The position numbers and the translations under genes were made by a program. Positions 2,107 to 56,325 of a stretch of 64,000 bases of DNA are shown here, piece after piece. The notes beneath the pieces were generated by a model, which did no database searches, had not been told where the DNA came from, and was given only the letters and a program-made list of their open reading frames with translations. This DNA comes from Escherichia phage slur14, in the sequence record NC_028448.1, one strand, 5' to 3'. Every line of letters starts with the position of its first letter. Position 1 is the first letter of the stretch.

Positions 2107-3808
<1,702 letters not shown>

Positions 3809-3849
3809 TAAATATTATAAACTAATTAAAGCCCAGATTAGGAGAAATC

Positions 3850-17979: not shown

Positions 17980-19974
17980 TTATGGATAGGTATAGATGAT
18001 ACCAGTTTCTAAAGCAGTTTTATGAATGATGTATCCATTACGCGATTCTTGGACATCAACTTCTGGATAGTCTTTCATCATCTTCTGAAGAGTGTAACGA
18101 TGCAGGTAGTATTTACTATCTGGATCTTCAGTTTTCCAATCTTTACCTTCTTCGGTCATTTTTTGGATTTCATCCATAACCCACCAACCGCACCAGATGT
18201 AAGCTGAAGTGCGATGTGGAAGAGGATGAACATAAGGCAATTCACCTTCTGGTTCTGGAGCAACTTTATCAGTTACCTGAACTTGACCTTCTGCTGTGAT
18301 AGTTTTGCTATCATAATCAGTAGCAGTAACAGTTGCAGTAACTTCAATAGTTTGACTTCCAATAGATGATGTATCAACAGTGTATACATTAGTTGACCCT
18401 TCTACTGGAGAAGAATCTTTCTTCCATGAATATTCGATTTGTGCTTCTTCTGGAGCATCCGTAACATTAGCAGTAAATGTAGCCGAAGCATCTTGCTGAA
18501 CGTTAATAGAAGGAGGAGTCAATGTAACCCGTGGATTCATTGTTTTCTTATTAACAGTCAATGATACTTCATTAGAAGTAACTTCCTTTTCATTGTAATT
18601 TTCTGCAGTTACTTGCGCTACACACTTAACTGTTTTAGCTCCAACTGTGGTAGGAGTATAGTTAAATGTAGTAGTAGTTTCTCCATCGACCAGAGAACCG
18701 TCAACATACCACTGATACGTAGCAGACGCTCCTGGTGGCTGTGAAGCCAAGGCAGCAGTAAATTGAACTGGGGTTCCAATTACTGCTGCAGCAGGATTAG
18801 CAGGAGTTACGGCTAACGTAGTTGTCTGTGTTTTCTTATTAACTGTTAATGATACTTCATTAGAAGTAACTGTTTTTGCGTCATAATCTGTTGCTGTTAC
18901 TTGCGCTACGCATTTAATTCTTTTTACTCCACTTGTAGTTGGAGTATAGCTAAATGTAGCAGAAGTCGCTTCACCAATTTGAGAATCATCTACATACCAC
19001 TGATACGTAGCAGATGCCCCATCAGGTTGAGAAGCTAAGGCAGCAGTAAATTCAACAGCTGTTCCGATTACTCCGGCAGCAGGATTAGCAGGAGTTACAG
19101 ATAGGGTAGTCGTTTGTGTTTTCTTGTTAACAGTCAAAGATACTTCATTCGAAGTAACTTCCTTTTCATTGTAATTTTCAGCAGTTACTTGGGCTACGCA
19201 TTTAATTCTTTTAACCCCACTTGTAGTTGGAGTGTAATTGAACGTAGCATTAGTTTCTCCACCAACTTGTGAATCATCTACATACCACTGATACGTAGCA
19301 GATGCTCCTAGCGGCTGCGAAGCTAAGGCAGCAGTAAATTGAACTGGGGTTCCAATTACTCCTGCTGGAGGACTATCAGGAGTTACTGCCAAAGTAGTTG
19401 TCTGCTCCTTTTTATTAACAGTCAGTGATACTTCATTAGAAGTAACGCTTAGTGCATCATAATCTGTCGCAGTTACTTGAGCCACACACTTAATTCTTTT
19501 TACCCCGCTTTCGGCAGGAGTGTAATTGAACGTAGCGTTAGTTGCTTCGTCTACAGGAGAACCGTCAACGTGCCATTGATACGTAGCGTTTGCACCTGAT
19601 GGCTGTGAAGCTAAGGCAGCGGTAAATTCAATTGGAGTTCCAATCACTCCAGCATCAGGGCTATCAGGAGTTACTGCCAACGTAGTTGACTGAGTTTTAT
19701 TTTTAACCGTGATAGTCGTAGTAATTTCTGCTGTTTCGGGACTACTATCGGCAACTTGATTTGTTGCAACAACTTTAATTGTTTTTGTTCCAGCAGGTCC
19801 TTTTAATACATAATTAAAAGTTGCTTCAGCTCCATCTTGTGGAACATCATCTACGCTCCAAGCATATGTAATAGGTCCATCTCCAGTTTGACCACTGGGT
19901 GTAGCAGTAAACTGCTGAGTCTGATCTATAACTCCAGTGGTGTTTTTAGGAGTTATATCAACTGTAAAAGTCAT
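17980..19974 (-). CDS. hoc: Highly immunogenic outer capsid protein Hoc, expanded Ig-like domain array
   Basis: 664 aa; N-terminal Ig-like domain, four near-identical ~96 aa repeats, a further Ig-like domain, and C-terminal capsid-binding segment ...YIWCGWWVMDEIQKMTEEGKDWKTEDPDSKYY as in T4 Hoc. Confidence 0.85.
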   Translation of the reverse strand: MTFTVDITPKNTTGVIDQTQQFTATPSGQTGDGPITYAWSVDDVPQDGAEATFNYVLKGPAGTKTIKVVATNQVADSSPETAEITTTITVKNKTQSTTLAVTPDSPDAGVIGTPIEFTAALASQPSGANATYQWHVDGSPVDEATNATFNYTPAESGVKRIKCVAQVTATDYDALSVTSNEVSLTVNKKEQTTTLAVTPDSPPAGVIGTPVQFTAALASQPLGASATYQWYVDDSQVGGETNATFNYTPTTSGVKRIKCVAQVTAENYNEKEVTSNEVSLTVNKKTQTTTLSVTPANPAAGVIGTAVEFTAALASQPDGASATYQWYVDDSQIGEATSATFSYTPTTSGVKRIKCVAQVTATDYDAKTVTSNEVSLTVNKKTQTTTLAVTPANPAAAVIGTPVQFTAALASQPPGASATYQWYVDGSLVDGETTTTFNYTPTTVGAKTVKCVAQVTAENYNEKEVTSNEVSLTVNKKTMNPRVTLTPPSINVQQDASATFTANVTDAPEEAQIEYSWKKDSSPVEGSTNVYTVDTSSIGSQTIEVTATVTATDYDSKTITAEGQVQVTDKVAPEPEGELPYVHPLPHRTSAYIWCGWWVMDEIQKMTEEGKDWKTEDPDSKYYLHRYTLQKMMKDYPEVDVQESRNGYIIHKTALETGIIYTYP
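18541..19692. repeat. Four tandem ~288-bp direct repeats inside hoc
   Basis: Unit boundaries at 18541, 18829, 19117, 19405 (recurring tgttttctt(a/g)ttaac motif); each unit encodes one Ig-like repeat. Confidence 0.8.
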
Positions 19975-38392: not shown

Positions 38393-38407
38393 ACTTTATG
38401 CAATCTT

Positions 38408-38440
38408 TGGAAAATAAAAAAGGACTCCCGAAGGAGTCCT
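38408..38440 (-). terminator. Rho-independent terminator downstream of the small basic-protein gene
   Basis: Minus strand AGGACTCC-TTCG-GGAGTCCT hairpin followed by ttttttattttcc. Confidence 0.7.
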
Positions 38441-38444
38441 CAAC

Positions 38445-38621
38445 TTATGCTTTCTGCTTACCAAAACGAGAAGCATCATCTCGAAGAACCGCACGTGCTC
38501 GGCGCATGATCTTCTCAACAGTTTGATTGATACGAGAGTTCGACCCACGCTTGTAGCCAGCGCGTTTAGAATCACCAACTTTCTTTTCAACTGCTTTCTT
38601 TGCTTTAGCTTGTTTTGCCAT
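38445..38621 (-). CDS. Small highly basic protein (Lys/Arg-rich)
   Basis: 58 aa from ATG at 38621 (MAKQAKAKKAVEKKV...); track ORF extends to 38663 from a weaker upstream start. Confidence 0.45.
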   Translation of the reverse strand: MAKQAKAKKAVEKKVGDSKRAGYKRGSNSRINQTVEKIMRRARAVLRDDASRFGKQKA

Positions 38622-39019
38622 TATAAATTCTCTTTTAAATGAAAATGCAGGACTTATTGGCATTGCCTGCGCAAGCCCTCAAGGGGAACATAGGTTTTTG
38701 GATATTTAACGACCAGGATAACCATAAACCCGTCATCATACCTTATAGCTCTTATCTGTTGCACACCGTTAGCTTAAAGGTTCCGGGTTCGATTTCTCGA
38801 GGATAAGATATATACTGATGGATATATAGGCCTTGAGGCGTACTCCCGATTGGCCATCACCTCGGGGTAGCATGCACTTGCCGCTATAAGAATAACATTC
38901 AAGAGGTACACCGTAAAACTGCCGGGGTCTTAAAACTATAATGATTCGCAAATCATTAATCAGACAGTTCGACGGCTCCTCGATTTTAGCTCACACTAAG
39001 GCAGTGAATCTCCAGTAAA

Positions 39020-39268
39020 TTACTTCAGTGTTACCACAAAGTGACGAACTGCTTTTCGTGCAGCAGAAGCCAAAGGCTTAGCATATTTAAGTTCATCTTT
39101 TTCCTGAAGCTCAGCAGCTAATGCAGTTTGAGCAGGATTCAGATGTTTGAAATAACGCAGGATTTCAAGAGCTTCGGCTTCAACATCAATAGATGCGCCA
39201 TAGTTTTCGTGACCATTATTCCATGCGTTTCGTTGCAGTTCAAGAGCGTGTTGTAATTGTTTAATCAT
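39020..39268 (-). CDS. rIII: rIII lysis-inhibition accessory protein
   Basis: 82 aa ORF, same length as T4 rIII; lies upstream of gene 31. Confidence 0.75.
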   Translation of the reverse strand: MIKQLQHALELQRNAWNNGHENYGASIDVEAEALEILRYFKHLNPAQTALAAELQEKDELKYAKPLASAARKAVRHFVVTLK

Positions 39269-42754: not shown

Positions 42755-43979
<1,225 letters not shown>

Positions 43980-43982
43980 TTA

Positions 43983-44213
43983 TTATTTCTCAACCAATGA
44001 TTGAATATAATCATGCAGGTCTTTAGATGCTTTACCCCACTTATTTTGGTATTCATTTTTAAGATTAGCCCGAGATTGAGCTAATAAAACATCATTAGTT
44101 GGAGGTAAAGATTCTAACCGTTGAATCTGGCGTCCATAAATCATTGCAGCCATCTCGGATTCATAAATCAATCCTTTGAGATGTTCAAATTGATGCCATG
44201 AAATCATTTGCAT
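43983..44213 (-). CDS. Hypothetical protein
   Basis: 76 aa ORF. Confidence 0.45.
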   Translation of the reverse strand: MQMISWHQFEHLKGLIYESEMAAMIYGRQIQRLESLPPTNDVLLAQSRANLKNEYQNKWGKASKDLHDYIQSLVEK

Positions 44214-44503
44214 TTATCCTCTTTTAGCTCTTGACGATAATAACATATCATAGTTTTTTGGTCATGTACATATCGTTTTACATCATTAAGCCAAATACGA
44301 AATTCCTGGGAATCTTCAAATGGCATACCGACCCAAGCTTTACCATCAATAACTTTAACTTGCCAAGATAGTTTAGCTTCATCATATGACTTTATTTGTA
44401 CAGGCCAATTAGGATGAACTGTTTCTTTCTTTACTTCTAGAGGCTTTGTCGAACAACCAACTAGAAGACCAATAGATAATATTACTGCTGATAGTTTAAT
44501 CAT
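44204..44503 (-). CDS. Outer-membrane spanin (o-spanin) lipoprotein
   Basis: 99 aa; signal peptide with lipobox LVGC (MIKLSAVILSIGLLVGCSTK); overlaps upstream i-spanin gene by 4 nt. Confidence 0.55.
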   Translation of the reverse strand: MIKLSAVILSIGLLVGCSTKPLEVKKETVHPNWPVQIKSYDEAKLSWQVKVIDGKAWVGMPFEDSQEFRIWLNDVKRYVHDQKTMICYYRQELKEDKCK

Positions 44504-44853
44504 TTAGAAAGGTCCTGGATGTCTTCTGCGAACTTGTTGAAGGAGTTGTTGATTTGTTTTTCAACCAATCCTGGCTTATGAGCCACCACATCCGCCTTCT
44601 TTGCGTCTTTGCGCAGTTTTTCATTTTCACGCTCAATAGCAGCAATTGCCTCACGATTTTTATTATTCATCGCATCAATATAATTATACTGAATTCGCAA
44701 ATTGTTTAATGCTAAAGCGTTTTCATTGGCCGTTTTTGTAATTTCTACAACAGACGTTTCTAATCTTTCAATTTTATTTTTTAAAATTAAAGAAGTTCCG
44801 CCCAATGCAATTACAATTAATAGCAAACCTGTTGTCGTATTACTTAATTGCAT
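44500..44853 (-). CDS. Inner-membrane spanin (i-spanin)
   Basis: 117 aa; N-terminal TM segment TTGLLLIVIALGGTSLIL then predicted coiled-coil periplasmic domain. Confidence 0.55.
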   Translation of the reverse strand: MQLSNTTTGLLLIVIALGGTSLILKNKIERLETSVVEITKTANENALALNNLRIQYNYIDAMNNKNREAIAAIERENEKLRKDAKKADVVAHKPGLVEKQINNSFNKFAEDIQDLSK

Positions 44854-45347
44854 AAAGTTTTAATAACCTCTATAATATCGTCTTGAGAAAGACCGTTAAT
44901 TAAAATATGATGTTCCGCCGGAGATTTAGAAATTTTAAAGCATGCCGCAACATCTTCTGCCATATCTGATGCACTACGATTTGGATTACTAATCCCAAGG
45001 CGGTGTTTTCCCGTTAAAGGATTAACGATGATATAGCATTTACAGTTGTTAACATGAACATTAGGTTGAGTCTGATTAATGAACACATCACAATCATATT
45101 TCGCAAGCTGATTTTCTAAAAAGACTTTCATCTCCTCAACCGCATCAGGAAGCATATCACGGGCTTGCTCAAGACGACGATTTCGATATTCTTTAATGGT
45201 CGTTTTCCGCTTGACTTGCTTAGCTAAATCTTTCTTAAGATCGGTGATATATCCAACTCGACGATTTCCTTTGAATACAGAAATCCCATCTGTAGTATCA
45301 CCGTATGCTTCAACGACCATTTCAGTAGTAATAAGTTGTAAATCCAT
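44844..45347 (-). CDS. alc: Alc (host transcription shut-off) protein
   Basis: 167-168 aa; N-terminus MDLQLITTEMVVEAYG; driven by the 54-bp early promoter cassette. Confidence 0.8.
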   Translation of the reverse strand: MDLQLITTEMVVEAYGDTTDGISVFKGNRRVGYITDLKKDLAKQVKRKTTIKEYRNRRLEQARDMLPDAVEEMKVFLENQLAKYDCDVFINQTQPNVHVNNCKCYIIVNPLTGKHRLGISNPNRSASDMAEDVAACFKISKSPAEHHILINGLSQDDIIEVIKTLCN

Positions 45348-45354
45348 CATAAAG

Positions 45355-45408
45355 TCCTCATGTTATGTCAGTAAGACTACTATAACACAACACGAGGGAC
45401 TTGTAAAC
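45355..45408 (-). promoter_or_regulatory. Conserved early promoter cassette, copy 2 (upstream of alc)
   Basis: 54 nt identical to 31079-31132; -35 TTTACA, 17-nt spacer, -10 TATAGT, leader with SD gagga. Confidence 0.65.
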
Positions 45409-45411
45409 AGC

Positions 45412-46999
<1,588 letters not shown>

Positions 47000-47026
47000 A
47001 ATAAAATGGGCCTTGCGGCCCACTCC

Positions 47027-48196
47027 TTAAAAATATTTTTTAAAACTCATCATAACTTTATCATCAACATCATTATCAATCTGTGCTACAAGGTAAGATG
47101 ACAGTTCTACTTCTTGCGGCGCGGATTGAACATTATCAGAATTAAGGTATTCACGAATCCAAGGATATGGATGTTTAACCGGAGCATCGGTAATTGGGCA
47201 TGGAAGACCGCACTGTTTCATACGAGATACAGTTAAGTAATCAATAAAGCTCCACATGCTATTTGTATTTAATCCAGGAACATCACCATCTTTAAATAAA
47301 TGAACTGCCCAATCTTTTTCTTGGCGGTTAACTTCCATGAAAATATCAACTGCTTCTTGTTCACACTCTTGAGCAATTTTAACCCATTCATCGCCATCAG
47401 TGCCAAGTTGAAGTTGACGAATAATATATTGAGTGCCTTTAAGGTGAAGCTGCTCATCACGTGCAATGAACTTCATAATCTTGGCATTACCTTCCATGAT
47501 TTCCATATTCTTGTGGAAGTTAAAGGTACATGCGAAAGATACATAAAAACGAATAGCTTCTAAGGCATTAATAACGTGCAAACAGAGGTAAAGAGATTTC
47601 ATTAGCTCTCGTTTGGCGTATTCAACGACTTTACCAAGTTCATCTTTGCGCCAACCTTCAGACAAAATTCCTTCGTATTCTTCTTTAGCGTTTTCCCATT
47701 CACGGGTTTTAACCAAGACATCATCGTAATATCGCCCAATGGACTCAGCACGTTTCATAATAGCTTCATCTAATACAATCTCATCAAACACCTTCGATGG
47801 ATCAGTATAAAGATTTCGCATGATATGTGTATATGAACGGCTGTGAATAGTTTCACTAAAAGTCCACGTAGCAACCCATGTATCAAGGCTTGGGTCTGAA
47901 ATTAATGACATAAGTACAGCAGATGGCGCGCGACCCTGAATGCTATCCAAAAGTGATTGATACTTCAGGTTATTAGTAAAAATATTCTGTTGATACTGAG
48001 GAAGTTTATTAAATTGTGCAGCATCCATCATCAAGTTTACTTCTTCAGGACGCCAGAAAAATGATAATTGCTTTTCAGTCAAATCTTCAAAAACTTTATG
48101 GCGTTGAATATCATAACGCGCAATACCAAGACCTGAACCGAAGAACATAGGTTCTTTTAAAACATCAACTGGATTTGTATTAAAAACTGTGCTCAT
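47027..48196 (-). CDS. nrdB: Ribonucleotide reductase small subunit, uninterrupted
   Basis: 389 aa continuous ORF; di-iron ligand motifs; no intron. Confidence 0.9.
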   Translation of the reverse strand: MSTVFNTNPVDVLKEPMFFGSGLGIARYDIQRHKVFEDLTEKQLSFFWRPEEVNLMMDAAQFNKLPQYQQNIFTNNLKYQSLLDSIQGRAPSAVLMSLISDPSLDTWVATWTFSETIHSRSYTHIMRNLYTDPSKVFDEIVLDEAIMKRAESIGRYYDDVLVKTREWENAKEEYEGILSEGWRKDELGKVVEYAKRELMKSLYLCLHVINALEAIRFYVSFACTFNFHKNMEIMEGNAKIMKFIARDEQLHLKGTQYIIRQLQLGTDGDEWVKIAQECEQEAVDIFMEVNRQEKDWAVHLFKDGDVPGLNTNSMWSFIDYLTVSRMKQCGLPCPITDAPVKHPYPWIREYLNSDNVQSAPQEVELSSYLVAQIDNDVDDKVMMSFKKYF

Positions 48197-48247
48197 AAAT
48201 TTTCCGCTTAGTTAATAGTTGGTGACTCGTCCATGAGTCAAATTATA

Positions 48248-50512
48248 TCATAATTTACAGGATGAACAATCTTCAGCTTTAGGAGTTTCTATTTCATAAT
48301 CATCAGTACCAGAACCATCGCGGGTATTATGATAATAGAAATTTTTTCCGCCAAAATACCAAAAATACAAAAGGTCATCAATCATTATTGACATTGGAAC
48401 CTTGCCTTTAGGGAAGATTTGGGGGTCATAGTATGTATTCGCCGAAGCTGATTGACAAACCCATTTCAGCATAATAGCTACCTGCGTAAGATAAGGTTTA
48501 TTACCTTTCTTAGCTAATTTCCATGTATAGTCGTAAAGGTCTATGTTATGCTCAATATTGGGCACGACTTGATTAAAGGAGCCCTCTTTTGATTCTTTAA
48601 CAGAGACTGGTCCACGTGGAGGCTCGATACCGTTTGTACTGTTAGAAACTTGGGAAGATGACTCACATGGCATAAGTGCTGATAATGTGCTATTACGGAT
48701 GCCAAAGAGCTTAAGGTCTTCCCGCAGCGACGACCAGTCACAAACGTATTTTGGAGCTGCGATTTGGTCAATCTTTTTATTGTACCAGTCGATAGGTAAT
48801 TCGCCTCGAGACCAACGAGTGTCTGAATAATATTCGCAAGGTCCTTTTTCTTTGGCGAGCTTAATGGATGCTTTAATGAGTCCATACTGTAATCTCTCAA
48901 ATAGTTCATGTGTTAAATCGTTAGCATCTTCATAAGAAGCAAAGTTACTTGCCAGCCAAGCTGCATAGTTAGTAACACCTACACCAAGGTTTCGACGCTT
49001 TTTAGCTTTTTCTGCTTCAGGAACTGGATATCCTTGGTAATCCAAAAGATTATCAAGAGCACGAACTTGAACTTCTGCCAATTCATTAATTTTATCTTGG
49101 TCTTGCCAGTCAAAATTATCCAGTACGAATGCAGAGAGAGTACACAATCCAATTTCAGCATCAGGACTATTCACATCATTTGTTGGAATAGCAATTTCAC
49201 AGCACAAGTTACTCTGACGAATAGGTGCCTTTTCACGAATAAACGGAGTATAGTTATTCGTATTATCAATGAACTGCACATAAATCCTTGCTGTTCCTGA
49301 ACGTTCAGTCATGAGCAATTCAAATAGTTCACGGGCTTTAATACGCTTTTTACGAATATTAGGGTCTTTTTCTGCTGCTTCGTATAATTCACGGAAACGG
49401 TCTTGGTCTTTAAAATAAGAATAATAAAGCTCGCCACCCATTTCATGCGGACTGAACAAAGTAATGTAATCGTTCTTTCCGAATCGTTCCATCATCAAAT
49501 CATTCAGCTGAACACCATAATCCATATGACGAATGCGGTTTTCTTCTACGCCTTTGTTATTTTTCAAAACGAGAAGATTTTCAACTTCCAAATGCCAAAT
49601 AGGATAATAAGCAGTAGCAGCGCCGCCACGAATTCCACCCTGTGAACATGATTTAACTGCAGTCTGAAAATGTTTCCAAAAAGGAATAACACCAGTATGG
49701 CGTACTTCACCCATGCCAATCTTAGAACCTTCAGCACGAATCATACCTACGTTAATTCCAATTCCAGCGCGTTTAGAAATATATTCAACAATTGAAGCAG
49801 AAGCTTTATTAATTGACTTCAATGAATCACCAGCTTCAATAACAACGCATGAACTAAACTGTCGAGTCGGAGTACGGCAACCAGCCATAATAGGAGTTGG
49901 CAATGAAATCTGTCGAGTAGATACTGCTTCATAAAAACGAATAACATGTTTTAATCTATCAACAGGTTCATCTTGATGCAATGCCATTCCAATAGTCATA
50001 AATGCAAACTGTGGAGTTTCATAAATTTGACCAGTGGTTTTATCTTTAACTAGATATTTTTCTTTTAATTGCATCGCCCCGGAATAAGTAAATTCCATAT
50101 CCCGCTCGTGCTTAATTTTTGATTCTAAAAATGTAATTTCTTCTGCTGAATATTTTGACAATAATTCAGGGTCGTATTTACCTTCATTTACACAGTAAGA
50201 AATATGGTCAATAAATGAACGTGGTTCATACTGTCCATAAACATGCTTACGAAGAGCAAACATTAAACAACGTGCAGCTACATATTGATAATCAGGCTCT
50301 TCAACCGAAATAGAATTCGCAGCAGCCTTAATGACAATAGTCTGAATATCATTAGTTGTCATTCCATCACGGAGATAAGATTTAATATTTTCATATAATT
50401 CATAAGGATCTACTGATGTTCCTTCAGCTGCCCAAGATAAAACTTTAATAATTTTTTGTGGGTCAAAGCTCTGAGAAACACCACTACTTTTGATAACATT
50501 AATTAATTGCAT
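48248..50512 (-). CDS. nrdA: Ribonucleotide reductase large subunit
   Basis: 754 aa; ATP-cone N-terminus; active-site region NLCCEI. Confidence 0.9.
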   Translation of the reverse strand: MQLINVIKSSGVSQSFDPQKIIKVLSWAAEGTSVDPYELYENIKSYLRDGMTTNDIQTIVIKAAANSISVEEPDYQYVAARCLMFALRKHVYGQYEPRSFIDHISYCVNEGKYDPELLSKYSAEEITFLESKIKHERDMEFTYSGAMQLKEKYLVKDKTTGQIYETPQFAFMTIGMALHQDEPVDRLKHVIRFYEAVSTRQISLPTPIMAGCRTPTRQFSSCVVIEAGDSLKSINKASASIVEYISKRAGIGINVGMIRAEGSKIGMGEVRHTGVIPFWKHFQTAVKSCSQGGIRGGAATAYYPIWHLEVENLLVLKNNKGVEENRIRHMDYGVQLNDLMMERFGKNDYITLFSPHEMGGELYYSYFKDQDRFRELYEAAEKDPNIRKKRIKARELFELLMTERSGTARIYVQFIDNTNNYTPFIREKAPIRQSNLCCEIAIPTNDVNSPDAEIGLCTLSAFVLDNFDWQDQDKINELAEVQVRALDNLLDYQGYPVPEAEKAKKRRNLGVGVTNYAAWLASNFASYEDANDLTHELFERLQYGLIKASIKLAKEKGPCEYYSDTRWSRGELPIDWYNKKIDQIAAPKYVCDWSSLREDLKLFGIRNSTLSALMPCESSSQVSNSTNGIEPPRGPVSVKESKEGSFNQVVPNIEHNIDLYDYTWKLAKKGNKPYLTQVAIMLKWVCQSASANTYYDPQIFPKGKVPMSIMIDDLLYFWYFGGKNFYYHNTRDGSGTDDYEIETPKAEDCSSCKL

Positions 50513-50829
50513 AAGTCCTCAACTTGAAAATCGTCTTTAAACAATCGGTTAACTATATGAGCTATTATATCACCATGACACGGCTTTGGTTTACATGTGC
50601 ATCCTAGCCTCATTCCACGTAAAGGCTCTAAATGTGCTTTAGTTATTTCTCCGGATTTAATTCGACGTATAAAATCTTTTTTGAATAATTCAATGGCAGC
50701 CTCCCGGCTGCCAGCATCTTTACCGACGTAATTTCCCCAAAATGTACCGCGGTGAATATTAACATCAAAGTCGGATTTGTATTTATTCACTACCCGACAT
50801 AGACGGCCAGCGCGGTGATGATTCGGCAT
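50503..50829 (-). CDS. Hypothetical Cys/His-motif protein
   Basis: 108 aa; motif [14 protein letters not shown]. Confidence 0.5.
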
Positions 50830-51046
50830 ATTGTTTTTCCGTTAATACAGTAATATCGTAGTAACAGTCAGAAGAAGTTTTAACTGTGGAAATTTTATTG
50901 TCAAAATATTCACGAGTCATTTTATGAGTATAGTATTTTTTACCATAAATGATAATAGGCTGTTCTGGTCCTGGAACTTCTAACTCGCTTGGGTTAGGAA
51001 GTGTAAAAAGAACAACGCCAGAAGTATCTTTAAATCGTAAAATCAT
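50783..51046 (-). CDS. Hypothetical protein
   Basis: 87 aa ORF; start overlaps td stop. Confidence 0.45.
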
Positions 51047-51903
51047 ATTGCCATTTTCCCTTTAATTGCTGGATGCGATTCATAATTTTCAAGGATAAAA
51101 TCTTTCGGTTTCATGTATTCAGTTAACCAGTAAAGCTGTGTTTCGGTGTCACAATTTCCAAACTCTATAGGCCAATCAATTTTAAGTTCACACAGTTCTT
51201 TAGGCTCACGACGTAAAATTTCTTTACATTGCTCAGTATGATTCATATAGATGTGAGTATTACCACCAGAAAATATCAAATCTCCTGGGATAAGATTACA
51301 CATCTTAGCCACAATATGCGTCAAGGCAGCGTACGAGGCAATGTTGAATGGCAATCCCAAGAAAACATCTACACTTCTTTGGTACCATTGTAAATCAAGA
51401 TAACCATTACGCACATTAAACTGATAGAACATATGACAGGGCGGTAATGCCATTTGATTGATTTCAGCTGGATTCCATGCTGAAACGATTTGACGTCGAT
51501 CAGTTGGTAATTTTTTAATACGATCAATAGTTTCAACTAATTGATCCACACCACCGAAATCACGCCATTGTTTACCGTATATAGGACCAAGTTCACCACT
51601 ATGATATCCTAGGTCTTTAGCTTGGTTTTCATAGTTATCGTCCCAAATAGTTTTACCTTGAATAAGACTGCCATGAGTGCGAAGACGTAAATCATTAACA
51701 TTGGTAGAACCGGAAATAAACCATAGAAGCTCAGCAATGCATGCATTCCAGGCGAGCTTTTTAGTTGTTACTGCAGGAAAACCTTTTGTTAAATCCCAAC
51801 GCAATTTAGTACCGAACAAAGCAATTGTTCCTGTGCCTGTTCGGTCATCGGTTTCATAGCCATTTTCAAAAATGTCTTTAATTAAATCTTGGTATTGTTT
51901 CAT
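51043..51903 (-). CDS. td: Thymidylate synthase, uninterrupted
   Basis: 286 aa continuous [19 protein letters not shown]...; catalytic PPCH motif; no intron. Confidence 0.9.
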
Positions 51904-51948
51904 TTAGTACCTTATATAAATTATAATACATTTTATGAAGCTAAATAA

Positions 51949-53145
<1,197 letters not shown>

Positions 53146-53156
53146 ATTATCTCCTA

Positions 53157-53489
53157 TTAAAAAGGATCAGGAACATATCCGCTAGCTTTAATCATTTTAA
53201 TTAACGTTAACATTCCTTTGTTAACTGCTCGTGAGATTTCATCAAAAACTTCATCACTAAAAAGTTCTAACACGCCCTTCTGAACTTTTAATTTACAGCC
53301 AACAATTTCGTCATCGCCTATAGTAAATTCATTACCACCAATTCCACCGAAAAACTTAATTACACCAGTTAACTGTCTTCCACGAGAATATGGGTCGTGT
53401 GATAAAGTAATATGAGTCACCCCGGGTACAGTTTTAAATTGGCAGCGAATATTTACTTGTGAAATTCCAGTTACATGAATGTCAGACAT
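53157..53489 (-). CDS. Hypothetical protein
   Basis: 110 aa ORF. Confidence 0.5.
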   Translation of the reverse strand: MSDIHVTGISQVNIRCQFKTVPGVTHITLSHDPYSRGRQLTGVIKFFGGIGGNEFTIGDDEIVGCKLKVQKGVLELFSDEVFDEISRAVNKGMLTLIKMIKASGYVPDPF

Positions 53490-53499
53490 AATATTTTCC

Positions 53500-53742
53500 T
53501 CAAATAGACTTTTTCACAATTTTCCAATCAGCTTTAAACTGATCGACGTCAGAGTGATAAATCCAAAATCCTGCGCTTTCTCCGTCTTCATAAAGAGGAC
53601 ATCCATCGCATTCATCTTCCCACCCCATATCGCGTAAAAGGTGTTCAGCTTTTTCAACAAGCTCAGAATCTTTACCGATGATATTAAAATACCATTTACC
53701 TCTAACTTCTGAATCTTTGATGCTCTGGCGTTGTAATCTCAT
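53500..53742 (-). CDS. Hypothetical protein
   Basis: 80 aa ORF; RBS aaggag. Confidence 0.5.
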   Translation of the reverse strand: MRLQRQSIKDSEVRGKWYFNIIGKDSELVEKAEHLLRDMGWEDECDGCPLYEDGESAGFWIYHSDVDQFKADWKIVKKSI

Positions 53743-53752
53743 TTTATTCTCC

Positions 53753-53821
53753 TTAGCAAGCTTTAATCAAAAGATATAAACAGACCAACATAACTGCTGC
53801 CATAATATAAGGTGCGAACAT
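53753..53821 (-). CDS. Possible 22-aa hydrophobic micro-protein
   Basis: Hand translation MFAPYIMAAVMLVCLYLLIKAC; RBS ggagaaaag 5 nt upstream; below ORF-track cutoff. Confidence 0.3.
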   Translation of the reverse strand: MFAPYIMAAVMLVCLYLLIKAC

Positions 53822-53849
53822 TTTCTTTTCTCCATTAGTTTTGATAGGG

Positions 53850-53883
53850 TAATAGTATCACACTACTACCCTTCTGTAAACTA
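53850..53883 (-). promoter_or_regulatory. Candidate early promoter (TTTACA-17-TACTAT)
   Basis: Minus strand gtttacagaagggtagtagtgtgatactattacc upstream of the micro-ORF and ORF 53500-53742. Confidence 0.4.
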
Positions 53884-54243
53884 CTTTTTGAAAGTTTTTC
53901 GCAAAAGTTCAATGATTTCATCTACATTGTTTTCGTCAACAATGCAGTGAATTTTTGTTACGCCAGAAACCTTGTCTTCTATTTCATCTTCAGAAGTCGG
54001 TTCTTTATACTCACGAAAACAATGAAATTCATCTTCGCAGACGTTGAAGTAAAAATGCTTTCCATTGGCGCATTCTACGTGTTTTACTACTTTAAATTCA
54101 TCAGCAAAGAAAACTTCTTTAACTTCAAACCATCCGCCATTTTCTTGAATAGCTTTAACTATTAATGAATTAGAACGCGGGCGATAATTAATAAATGTAT
54201 CAATAAGTCTTGGAACAAGTTCGTACTTTTTATCAATATACAT
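53881..54243 (-). CDS. Hypothetical protein
   Basis: 120 aa ORF. Confidence 0.5.
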   Translation of the reverse strand: MYIDKKYELVPRLIDTFINYRPRSNSLIVKAIQENGGWFEVKEVFFADEFKVVKHVECANGKHFYFNVCEDEFHCFREYKEPTSEDEIEDKVSGVTKIHCIVDENNVDEIIELLRKTFKK

Positions 54244-54287
54244 TATGTTTTCCTCATTTTAATAGGGGCTTGATAGCCCCTCGATAA

Positions 54288-54539
54288 TTACTGTTCAATC
54301 AATCCCATGTAAAATTCTGCATCTTCAGCATCCATACCATCACAGTATTCATTAGCCATAAATCGTTCAAGAACTTCTAAAGGACCTTCAATAACAATAG
54401 AAAAATTGCAATAATTGGGATCATCATGAATACTTGTGATACTAAGTTCAGGATAACGATTACGAATAATTTCTTCAATATATTCAAAATCAACGATGTC
54501 AATATCAACTTTAGCCATATTGTTTTCCTCTTTAATCAT
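54288..54539 (-). CDS. Hypothetical acidic protein
   Basis: 83 aa ORF; preceded by stem-loop AGGGGCT-TGAT-AGCCCCT (54272-54289). Confidence 0.5.
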
Positions 54540-54609
54540 CAGCAGTATTGCCGATAGTTGTATAGTACCATAAAGCTTTATGCTTGTAAACCGTTTTGTG
54601 AAAAAATTT

Positions 54610-54641
54610 TTGAAATAAAAAAGGGGACCTCTAGGGTCCCC
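54610..54641 (-). terminator. Rho-independent terminator downstream of gene 32
   Basis: Minus strand GGGGACC-CTAGA-GGTCCCC hairpin followed by ttttttatttc. Confidence 0.75.
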
Positions 54642-54663
54642 AATTAATTAGTAATATAATCTA

Positions 54664-55572
54664 TTAAAGGTCATTCAAAAGGTCATCCAGGTCCGTGTCA
54701 TCAGCACTAGATGAACTGCCAGAGCTTGAGCTCATAAAATCATCTTCAGTTTTTGTATTGAAGTCATCAACATTGAATGCATCCAAATCATCAGCAACTT
54801 TATCAGCTTTCTTAGCAGCAGTTGCTGCGGCACCACCCATAGCAGCAGTTCCCATAACTTGACTGAACTTAGTGCTCAGTTCTTCAAACGATTTGAATTT
54901 ATCTTTAGAAGTCATTTCAGAAAGGTCAACCATTTGTTCGAACAGTTCTTTTTGGAAAGATTCATCATCAATGTTTGGAATCGCAGATTGATTCAGGAAT
55001 TTAGATTCGTCGTAGTTACTAAAACCAGAAACTTGTTTAACTTTCAGTACAAAGTTAGCACCTTCCCACGGACAAGTTACATCAACCGGAGTTTCACCCA
55101 TTTCAACATCAACTGCAATCATTGCATTGATTTTATCCCAGATTTTCTTACCGAAACGGTATTTAAATACTTTACCTTCGTTTTCTGGAGCAGCCGGGTC
55201 TTTTACTACAAGAATGTTAGCCCAGTAAGAAGTTTTACGTTTAACAAGGCTGTACTCTTTATTGTCAGTGTTGTACAAATCATTTTTACTGATGTATTGA
55301 CATACTGGACAAGAATCGTAATCACCGTGGGTAGATGAACAGTTTTCAATATACCATTTACCATTTTTCTTGAAACCGTGATTTACAAGAATTGCGAATG
55401 GTGCTTGTTCATCATTTTTAGACGGAAGAAAACGAATTACTGCTTGACCGTTACCCGCATTGTCGAGTTTCAGTTTCCACTCGCCTTTATCTTCAGAAGA
55501 AAAACCACCTTTATTTCCAGCCAGTTTAGCCATTTGTGCAGCGAGTTCAGCAGTAGATTTACGTTTAAACAT
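54664..55572 (-). CDS. 32: Single-stranded DNA-binding protein gp32
   Basis: 302 aa; N-terminus [17 protein letters not shown], zinc ligands, acidic C-terminus ...[12 protein letters not shown]. Confidence 0.95.
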
Positions 55573-55640
55573 TTTTATTTCCTTTTTAATTTAATTAACA
55601 GTTGGTGCTATGACGATGTATGACCTCATAGCTGGTCAGT
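55573..55640 (-). promoter_or_regulatory. Gene 32 translational operator: 5' pseudoknot plus unstructured A/U-rich leader
   Basis: Minus strand tgaccagctatgaggtcatacatcgtcatagc (stem 1 TGACC/GGTCA, stem 2 TATGA/TCATA) then aattaaattaaaaaggaaataaaa before ATG. Confidence 0.65.
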
Positions 55641-55655
55641 GAGATAATTATAATC

Positions 55656-55663
55656 TATTTATA
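55656..55663 (-). promoter_or_regulatory. Late promoter motif TATAAATA upstream of gene 32 leader
   Basis: Plus strand tatttata; minus TATAAATA ~85 nt upstream of gene 32 ATG. Confidence 0.45.
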
Positions 55664-55671
55664 ATAAGCAA

Positions 55672-56325
55672 TTAATACTTGCAAGATTTCACAGTTTCAA
55701 TAAAAACATTTTTAGCTTTCTGTGAATCAATATTTAAAATTTTTCTATAAGCCTTTAACTTTATAGAATAATTATTCCAGACTAAATTATCAGTCTGTTC
55801 ATCATGTTTATCAATTATATTTAAAAACGAATCAAGCAAGATAAACGTTTCAAACGAAATTATATTCGACTGAAGCAGTTTAAAAATATAACTTGATTGA
55901 ACCTTTGGATTATATTCAAAGATTTCTTTAAAAGCAGAAACTTCAACTTTTTTACTAAAATAATAAATGTTGCGAATATCTTCTTCAAACTTAAATTTAA
56001 TTTGCTTTAAGCGTCCGATATATTCACGATAAAACACAAGTGCATCAGCGTCAGAGATGTCACCAATCCAAGCATCTTGGTTAGCAACAAGATTGCTTAT
56101 AAAGATTAAAGCAAGTTCCTTTAATTTATATTTTTCTGATAACTTCTGGAAAAAATACTTATCCCTTCGCTTTTGATAAGCGGCATCAGACACCCGCATG
56201 CACCAATTATACTTAATTACATCATACTTTCCATTCATATGTTGTTTTATCATTAAGTATAATTTATAAACTGATTTACCATCAATATATCTTTCACCAC
56301 CAGCAGGCATGCGGAGTTTAATCAT
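55672..56325 (-). CDS. 59: gp59 loader of the gp41 helicase
   Basis: 217 aa ORF; synteny next to gene 32. Confidence 0.85.
   Translation of the reverse strand: MIKLRMPAGGERYIDGKSVYKLYLMIKQHMNGKYDVIKYNWCMRVSDAAYQKRRDKYFFQKLSEKYKLKELALIFISNLVANQDAWIGDISDADALVFYREYIGRLKQIKFKFEEDIRNIYYFSKKVEVSAFKEIFEYNPKVQSSYIFKLLQSNIISFETFILLDSFLNIIDKHDEQTDNLVWNNYSIKLKAYRKILNIDSQKAKNVFIETVKSCKY

Follow-up and report, generated by a model that had tools for sequence, protein, structure and literature searches.

In T4 (NC_000866, 137955-145112), the td-nrdA-nrdB region holds a 1017-nt td intron with I-TevI, a 598-nt nrdB intron with I-TevIII, and the genes mobE and nrdB.1. The question raised by the corresponding region of the 64,000-nucleotide stretch of DNA analysed here (the window) is whether any of these elements is present, and, if not, whether the sites that they occupy in T4 could still receive them. 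The preliminary description of this DNA had called td and nrdB uninterrupted and the phage a potential recipient for intron homing, and had described the T4 introns as carrying I-TevI and I-TevIII. Both introns are indeed found in T4, but its I-TevIII gene is truncated and inactive (PMC1865063).

The window and the gene order of the cluster

Over positions 46500-52400 the window was 100% identical to the genomes of slur03 and slur08 (LN881728, NC_042129, LN881733; Genome Announc 2015, PMC4698387), with zero differences seen in that stretch; the genes follow one another in an identical order there, and td, nrdA and nrdB are likewise uninterrupted. By its sequence, the window comes from the genome of a Tequatrovirus that is identical to Escherichia phage slur03, and, read as the reverse complement, it appears to correspond to slur03 positions 16340-80339. 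The nucleotide-metabolism cluster reads frd-td-nrdA.2-nrdA.1-nrdA-nrdB-denA (Table 1); the td-nrdA-nrdB region has the same genes, order and orientation as in T4, and its proteins are collinear with those of T4. The length of nrdA, 2265 nt, is the same in the window, in T4 and in Escherichia phage vB_EcoM_Lutter (NC_054924; Lutter below).

The window differs from T4 by a 408-nt insert between frd and td that contains an ORF of 115 codons. This ORF was considered as an unrecognised endonuclease and rejected, as it gave no Pfam match and no PDB sequence relative and belonged only to phrog_1928, a family of unknown function.

Table 1. Positions in the window of the genes, empty sites and homing-site equivalent (slashes mark insertion points)
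Feature	Position	Strand	Basis
denA, endonuclease II, GIY-YIG fold	46589..46999	-	Pfam GIY-YIG E=5e-6; phrog_1111 'endonuclease' E=2e-65; phmmer vs T4 DenA E=5e-96
nrdB, class Ia ribonucleotide reductase small subunit, single 389-codon ORF	47027..48196	-	ORF list; Pfam PF00268
Empty nrdB intron site, gene nt 667/668, GCAT/GTACC	47529..47530	-	Alignment to T4 junction
nrdA-nrdB spacer, 51 bp, empty slot	48197..48247	-	T4 and Lutter annotation; blastn breakpoints 48196/48252; sequence
nrdA, class Ia ribonucleotide reductase large subunit, uninterrupted, 754 aa	48248..50512	-	Pfam ATP-cone, Ribonuc_red_lgN, Ribonuc_red_lgC
nrdA.1 homologue (DUF4326)	50503..50829	-	Pfam PF14216, E=6e-22; position as T4 nrdA.1
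nrdA.2 homologue (DUF5496)	50783..51046	-	Pfam PF17600, E=8e-56; position as T4 nrdA.2
td, thymidylate synthase, single 286-codon ORF	51043..51903	-	ORF list; Pfam PF00303
I-TevI homing-site equivalent, -27 to +12	51343..51381	-	Alignment with T4; site geometry from PMC2988022, PMC5009752
Empty td intron site, gene nt 549/550, GGGA/TTGCC	51354..51355	-	Alignment to T4 splice junction GGGT/CTACC

td and nrdB are continuous genes with empty intron sites

The identities given to both genes in the preliminary description, and their continuity, were borne out by the ORF list, by Pfam matches that each formed a single stretch, and by alignment with the spliced T4 genes. The td product covered the whole of the thymidylate synthase domain (PF00303 Thymidylat_synt, positions 1-266 of 266, E=7e-96, 320.8 bits) and has the catalytic PPCH motif at residue 154; this full-length domain with its catalytic cysteine motif identifies it as a thymidylate synthase. 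Its alignment with spliced T4 Td covers both proteins in full, with 239 of 286 residues identical and a nucleotide identity of 76.8%. NrdB matched PF00268 (Ribonuc_red_sm) at positions 9-271 of 281 (E=3e-37), and its score of 128.8 bits against a curated cut-off of 33.6, together with its collinearity with T4 NrdB, places it among the small subunits. The gene is one codon longer than that of T4, the extra codon coming from a patch of variable sequence at about residues 171-197; outside this patch NrdB matches the spliced T4 protein from end to end. At 36% G+C, frames of these lengths would stay open by chance with probabilities of about 1e-9 (td) and 7e-13 (nrdB).

Alignment with T4, which the preliminary description had proposed as a check, located the empty sites between 51355 and 51354 in td and between 47530 and 47529 in nrdB. 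At the first, where T4 has the intron with I-TevI, the 861 nt of the window gene (1878 nt in T4) run on without extra sequence; at the second, where T4 has the intron with the defective I-TevIII, the junction is likewise contiguous (1170 nt against 1765 nt). In both cases the intron is skipped precisely at the splice junctions. The third empty site is the spacer between nrdA and nrdB, which contains mobE and nrdB.1 in T4 and a full-length MobE of 213 aa in Lutter, and neither gene in the window.

Could the introns have been collapsed or dropped when the source genome was assembled? A close relative, BYEP02, does have 77-nt duplications at three joints in this region; its nrdA in three pieces was rejected as an insertion, the duplications being consistent with an assembly artefact. 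For the window, however, such an explanation is scarcely credible: slur03 and slur08 are independent records that are identical here, the frame is kept exactly at both junctions, and in 575 records at least 80% of the 5.9-kb region is found at one place, as a single collinear piece in nearly all of those listed. We found no evidence against the absence of the introns, and td and nrdB are uninterrupted in this phage.

Searches for introns and homing endonucleases

We then looked for introns and endonuclease genes by similarity. A scan with Rfam gathering thresholds gave no match in the window, but it gave none on the intron-bearing region of T4 either, and this null result was discarded as evidence. 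Since the gathering threshold misses the ORF-carrying group I introns of T4 itself, a default Rfam scan cannot declare a phage gene intron-free. When the scan was run by E-value, the group I intron model RF00028 detected the two introns of T4 (at 40.3 and 35.7 bits), and with the same model at E<=1 no match was obtained for 44000-56000 or for the window as a whole. The window shares no 16-mer with either T4 intron.

The endonucleases of T4 and Lutter were compared by phmmer with all 342 window ORFs of at least 50 aa, and only DenA matched; at this length no ORF was like I-TevI, I-TevIII, MobE or nrdB.1, within the reach of a single-sequence search, from which distant Seg-type genes could escape. 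Pfam searches of the neighbouring and the larger hypothetical ORFs gave no HNH or GIY-YIG domain except that of DenA, and the annotation of the slur03 interval that matches the window contains no 'homing endonuclease'. DenA, the one protein of GIY-YIG or HNH type that was detected in the window, was rejected as a homing endonuclease, being a nuclease that degrades host DNA. These searches, with the junction alignment, agree with the earlier statement that td and nrdB lack introns and endonuclease genes.

A search for an nrdD intron and for further GIY-YIG and HNH genes had also been suggested. T4 nrdD lies at 43535-46385, and the slur03 gene has 1818 nt, the length that T4 nrdD would have without its intron of 1033 nt, and was aligned by blastn as one contiguous piece; judged from this comparison, nrdD is also intron-free in the genome that matches the window.

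Possible competence of the empty sites for homing

The nrdB site is very close to that of T4. Over 30 nt on either side of the insertion point, the window differs from the spliced T4 junction at 4 of 60 positions (-5, -2, +17 and +23), none of which falls on the I-TevIII cut positions -14 and -16 (PMC1865063), and nrdB exon II as a whole is 97% identical to that of T4.

The td site has diverged more. Around the insertion point 17 of 60 positions differ from T4, all but one synonymously, and within the I-TevI site itself (-27 to +12) 11 of 39 bases differ, all synonymously; across both the td and the nrdB insertion sites the amino-acid sequence is identical in the window and in T4. I-TevI cleaves at a CNNNG motif 23-27 nt upstream of the insertion site, in which C1 and G5 are critical (PMC5009752, PMC2988022). 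Both bases are present in window td, where the motif is CAAAG (51377-51381, -27 to -23) against CAACG in T4, so that the central triplet is AAA in place of AAC. Many CNNNG variants are not cleaved by I-TevI, and the enzyme tolerates multiple substitutions (PMC5009752); our literature search found nothing on its activity on CAAAG. In exon II, the side on which the DNA-binding domain of the enzyme stays bound, there are 4 differences from T4 in the first 12 bases and 7 in the first 21. The base at -1 is A and not the U required for the U-G pair of the 5' splice site; an intron would consequently be functional here only if exon sequence were co-converted with it, as in Lutter.

We regard the td and nrdB sites as putative homing targets. 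The reading of the phage as a potential recipient is supported, at the level of sequence, by the near-T4 nrdB site, by the conserved C and G of the td motif and by the case of Lutter.

Phage Lutter as a filled counterpart

Lutter is 98.4% identical to the window over the region, and its td, nrdA and nrdB alleles are those of the window outside short patches. What it has and the window lacks is a T4-type td intron with an intact I-TevI of 245 aa, and the full-length MobE. Its td gene is 96.7% identical to window td, and its intron, of 1016 nt, matches the 1017-nt intron of T4 at 1009 positions. T4-type exon bases are confined to gene nt 505-555 (-45 to +6), with window-type bases at 501 and 558, which delimits a converted tract of 51-56 nt lying mostly in exon I; such an exon I bias of co-conversion is expected for I-TevI (PMC2988022). 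Beside mobE, T4-type patches are seen at nrdB nt 6-123 and nrdA nt 2238-2264, in agreement with the location of the MobE nick region, the 5' part of nrdB (PMC2790892). Lutter represents the filled state of two of the three sites that are empty in the window, as the outcome of a past event and not as proof that I-TevI cuts the exact sequence of the window.

This comparison bears on the possibility that window td is a naturally resistant target, in which synonymous drift in the binding region and the cleavage triplet of I-TevI would block cutting, the phage then being intron-free through immunity and not for want of an encounter with a donor. The 17 differing positions, among them the change from CAACG to CAAAG and the seven changes in +1 to +21, would fit, as would the number of CNNNG triplets that escape cleavage (PMC5009752) and the fact that about 70% of td-bearing records are intron-free despite efficient homing in the laboratory (PMC2988022). 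Window td, with A for U at -1 besides the CAAAG triplet and the seven synonymous exon II changes, might then be partly I-TevI-resistant, such alleles could explain the prevalence of intron-free genes, and the Lutter tract would be a rare successful invasion. We nevertheless hold this to be quite improbable, because Lutter has essentially the same allele and carries the T4-type intron, which means that a similar background was invaded, and because C1 and G5 are kept in a site whose enzyme is tolerant of substitutions.

It is also unlikely, if a little less so, that the intron-free state is secondary, an ancestor having lost the td intron, the nrdB intron or both precisely, for instance through recombination with an intron-free relative or with spliced cDNA. 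Loss is part of the life-cycle models of homing elements (PMC2988022), and the T4-like exon II and junction of nrdB fit a T4-like ancestry there. The flanks of window td, however, have none of the T4-type bases found in the exons next to the intron in both T4 and Lutter, and no remnant of an intron was found by 16-mers or by RF00028. Our data are compatible both with a gene that was never invaded and with one whose intron was lost by replacement with an intron-free allele.

In our preferred reading, which we hold to be very probable, the cluster is unoccupied for three selfish elements, namely the td intron with I-TevI, the nrdB intron with I-TevIII in truncated form and mobE, a free-standing HNH gene, and co-infection could convert its sites. 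As the introns are absent, td and nrdB are translated from their mRNA directly, without a splicing step, and both should be fully functional. The sites being empty and the targets largely intact, co-infection with a relative bearing the elements could lead to their conversion: after a cut by the endonuclease close to the empty site, donor-templated repair would copy in the element together with a short stretch of flanking exon. Lutter is a natural product of such a conversion on the same genetic background.

Distribution and typing value

Among 678 td-bearing records, about 466 are uninterrupted and about 197 have the intron. An intron-free td is therefore the majority state among T4 relatives and not a distinguishing one, and the intron-minus state has been described as common (PMC2988022). 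T2 and T6, which we compared by their published descriptions, have an uninterrupted nrdB as the window does, and T2 is described as having no mobE. The intron-free condition of td and nrdB reported here is correct, ordinary and already documented. The suggestion that it would be useful for typing within the T-even group needs qualifying: it has little value for this, since intron and mobE content varies between phages that are 98% identical over the region. The finding itself adds little past bookkeeping; its useful by-products are the precise positions of the three empty sites and a clean natural pair of filled and empty states, Lutter and slur03, with co-conversion tracts of the homing type.

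Position and continuity of the empty insertion sites

All genes between 45.4 and 55.6 kb of the window lie on the minus strand (see the table). The ORF list reproduces exactly the coordinates and codon counts previously given for td (286) and nrdB (389); at 36% G+C, the chance of an open frame of these lengths is about 1e-9 and 7e-13, respectively. In the T4 annotation, by contrast, td consists of two pieces joined around I-TevI, nrdB of two pieces joined around a defective I-TevIII, and the nrdA-nrdB interval holds mobE and nrdB.1. Alignment placed the T4 td intron (1017 nt) after gene nucleotide 549 (…TTCTTGGGT/TAATTGAGG…CATAATG/CTACCG) and the T4 nrdB intron (598 nt) after nucleotide 664 (…TTTGCGT/AAAATG…CATACG/GTACC). 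The window sequence is continuous across both splice junctions, and the blastn breakpoints between the window and T4 fall at 47529/47532, 48196/48252 and 51351/51356; we therefore placed the three empty sites as listed in the table. At both sites the amino acids are the same in T4 and in the window (LPFNIASYA after the td site, EAIRFYVSFA-C-TFNFHKNME around the nrdB site). The alignment with T4 thus confirmed that td and nrdB are intron-minus.

Genes of the td-nrdB region in their order and empty T4 insertion sites
Feature	Position	Strand	Evidence
gene 32	first in order, 45.4-55.6 kb	minus	
frd.3, frd.2, frd.1, then two small ORFs	after gene 32	minus	
frd	after the two small ORFs	minus	
115-aa ORF	51949-52296, between frd and td	minus	phrog_1928
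td, 286 aa	51043-51903	minus	Pfam Thymidylat_synt, positions 1-266 of 266, E=7e-96
nrdA.2 and nrdA.1	between td and nrdA	minus	
nrdA, 754 aa	48248-50512	minus	
nrdB, 389 aa	47027-48196	minus	Pfam Ribonuc_red_sm, single stretch, E=3e-37
denA, then rnlA	after nrdB	minus	
Empty td site	51355/51354	minus	T4 alignment and blastn breakpoints
Empty nrdB site	47530/47529	minus	T4 alignment and blastn breakpoints
Empty mobE slot	51-bp spacer, 48197-48247	minus	sequence read

The window corresponds to the reverse complement of positions 16340-80339 of slur03, one of 14 cattle-slurry coliphages published in 2015 (PMC4698387), and its 46500-52400 segment is 100% identical to slur03 (LN881728, NC_042129) and slur08, both of the genus Tequatrovirus; in 575 phage records at least 80% of this segment was covered in one place. 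Relative to T4 the region is a mosaic, since td is only 76.8% identical to T4 over the gene (nucleotides) versus 92-97% for nrdB outside a short, strongly divergent patch at residues ~171-197 (window ~47597-47686), which has one codon more than T4 NrdB. In T4 frd and td overlap. Here a 408-nt insertion (51907-52314), absent from T4 and seen in Lutter, UFV-AREG1, BYEP02, RB14 and others, sits exactly between the two genes; the 115-aa ORF that it carries had no Pfam or PDB sequence match, and its phrog is of unknown function. Between frd and frd.1 (52900-53489, minus strand) we observed an 81-aa ORF (phrog_3183) and a 110-aa ORF (DUF7247/phrog_3566) that have no counterpart in the T4 interval.

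Searches for introns and homing endonucleases

A default Rfam scan of the window gave no match; neither did the same scan of the T4 intron-bearing region (134000-148000), so the negative result is uninformative. Against the group I intron model RF00028, whose gathering score is 50, the ORF-carrying td and nrdB introns of T4 reach 40.3 and 35.7 bits, and because both fall under this threshold, a default scan cannot prove a phage gene intron-free; the E-value mode, which detects both T4 introns, is needed. In this mode (E≤1), RF00028 had no match in 44000-56000 or in the whole window, and the window does not share a single 16-mer with the two T4 introns.

When the 342 ORFs of at least 50 aa were searched by phmmer with T4 I-TevI, I-TevIII, MobE and nrdB.1 and with Lutter MobE, the sole match was DenA; this GIY-YIG nuclease serves to degrade host DNA and does not belong to the homing endonucleases. 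Pfam found no HNH or GIY-YIG domain in ten larger hypothetical ORFs, and the RefSeq annotation of the matching slur03 interval lists no homing endonuclease, which bears out the statement that td and nrdB encode none. Outside the window, the slur03 nrdD gene (1818 nt, the 2851 nt of T4 nrdD minus its 1033-nt intron) is contiguous by blastn and directly followed by nrdG, with no mobC. Also outside the window, at slur03 98739-99347 (18400-19008 of segment L012), a 202-aa HNH endonuclease is annotated directly upstream of a 10-tRNA cluster. Slur03 is thus intron-free at the three T4 intron sites, yet not endonuclease-free.

In the slur03 annotation, a gap of ~400 nt without annotated gene (window 38621-39020) adjoins rIII; nearby, window 38406-38489 gave a sub-threshold Rfam match to Atu_C8 (31.4 bits, E=0.024), probably by chance.

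The td and nrdB sites as possible homing targets

Within 30 nt on either side of the nrdB site, only positions -5, -2, +17 and +23 differ from the T4 spliced junction; the I-TevIII of RB3 cuts at -14/-16 (PMC1865063). Around the td site, 17 of 60 positions differ from T4. The CNNNG cleavage motif (CAAAG, -27 to -23) keeps C1 and G5, the bases critical for I-TevI (PMC5009752); C1 opens a Gln codon, and G5 takes the second position of an Arg codon. The central triplet of the motif is AAA versus AAC in T4, and a literature search for I-TevI activity on the CAAAG variant found no data. The -1 base of the td site is A. In group I introns a U at -1 forms the 5' splice-site U-G pair, and a newly inserted td intron would therefore need exon co-conversion for splicing.

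A filled counterpart of the region is found in Lutter (NC_054924), 98.4% identical to the window over the whole region and 96.7% over td. Its td intron (1016 nt, 1009 positions matching that of T4) encodes an intact 245-aa I-TevI. In a three-way comparison, Lutter was T4-like against the window only at td informative sites 505-555 (-45 to +6); this tract is flanked by window-type sites 501 and 558, and elsewhere in the 3' two-thirds of the gene Lutter is window-type throughout. The tract is mostly exon I, taking in the cleavage site and the -1 U, and extends over six bases of exon II. Such a bias is reported for I-TevI, which remains attached to exon II (PMC2988022). Between nrdA and nrdB, Lutter carries a 213-aa MobE flanked by T4-type patches at nrdB nucleotides 6-123 and nrdA nucleotides 2238-2264, which fits the position reported for the MobE nick in T2, in the 5' part of nrdB (PMC2790892). 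The same backbone is thus seen empty in the window and converted in Lutter, a pair that lends strong circumstantial support, with the qualifications noted for the td site, to the suggestion that this phage is a potential homing recipient.

Lutter MobE (3194-3835 of its segment, L003) combines HNH and NUMOD3. Compared with T4 (5717-6417 of L001), its N-terminal end corresponds to T4 MobE (141 aa) and its C-terminal end to T4 nrdB.1 (83 aa, NUMOD3 motif), so that T4 mobE and nrdB.1 resemble two fragments of a single longer gene.

Distribution among phages

At a coverage of at least 80%, the T4 td intron was found in 197 records; td itself was present in 678 and uninterrupted in 466, copies with the intron falling into two places under the joining rule of the counting tool. 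The T4 nrdB intron was found at the same coverage in 118 records, versus 824 with nrdB. These counts are approximate, as they include duplicate GenBank/RefSeq entries and laboratory T4 variants. Intron-free is clearly the majority state, in agreement with the absence of the nrdB intron from T2 and T6 (PMC1865063) and with a review that describes T4 as an oddity, most T-even genomes having few endonuclease insertions (PMC2988022). Since the genome has been published and a lack of these introns is already documented as the norm, nothing here is novel. The preliminary description had also considered intron absence useful for typing within the T-even group; its value for this is low, since both intron and mobE content vary among phages with 98% identity in this region, and the character marks strains and not lineages.

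In the records of two other relatives, nrdA is disrupted. In UFV-AREG1 (96.7% identical), the record as deposited has nrdA in two ORFs separated by a ~1-kb insertion (3168-4168 of L010) encoding a 236-aa HNH/I-HmuI-NUMOD-like endonuclease; the halves share ~126 nt of duplicated nrdA, with an additional 87-nt perfect repeat, and the split corresponds to window ~49032-49253, where nrdA is intact. In BYEP02 (L011), nrdA is annotated as three CDSs, broken by three exact 77-nt tandem duplications whose joints correspond to window 48516-48592, 49997-50073 and 52322-52399. We rejected a biological origin of these breaks; the pattern fits contigs joined with a 77-nt overlap left untrimmed, an assembly artefact.
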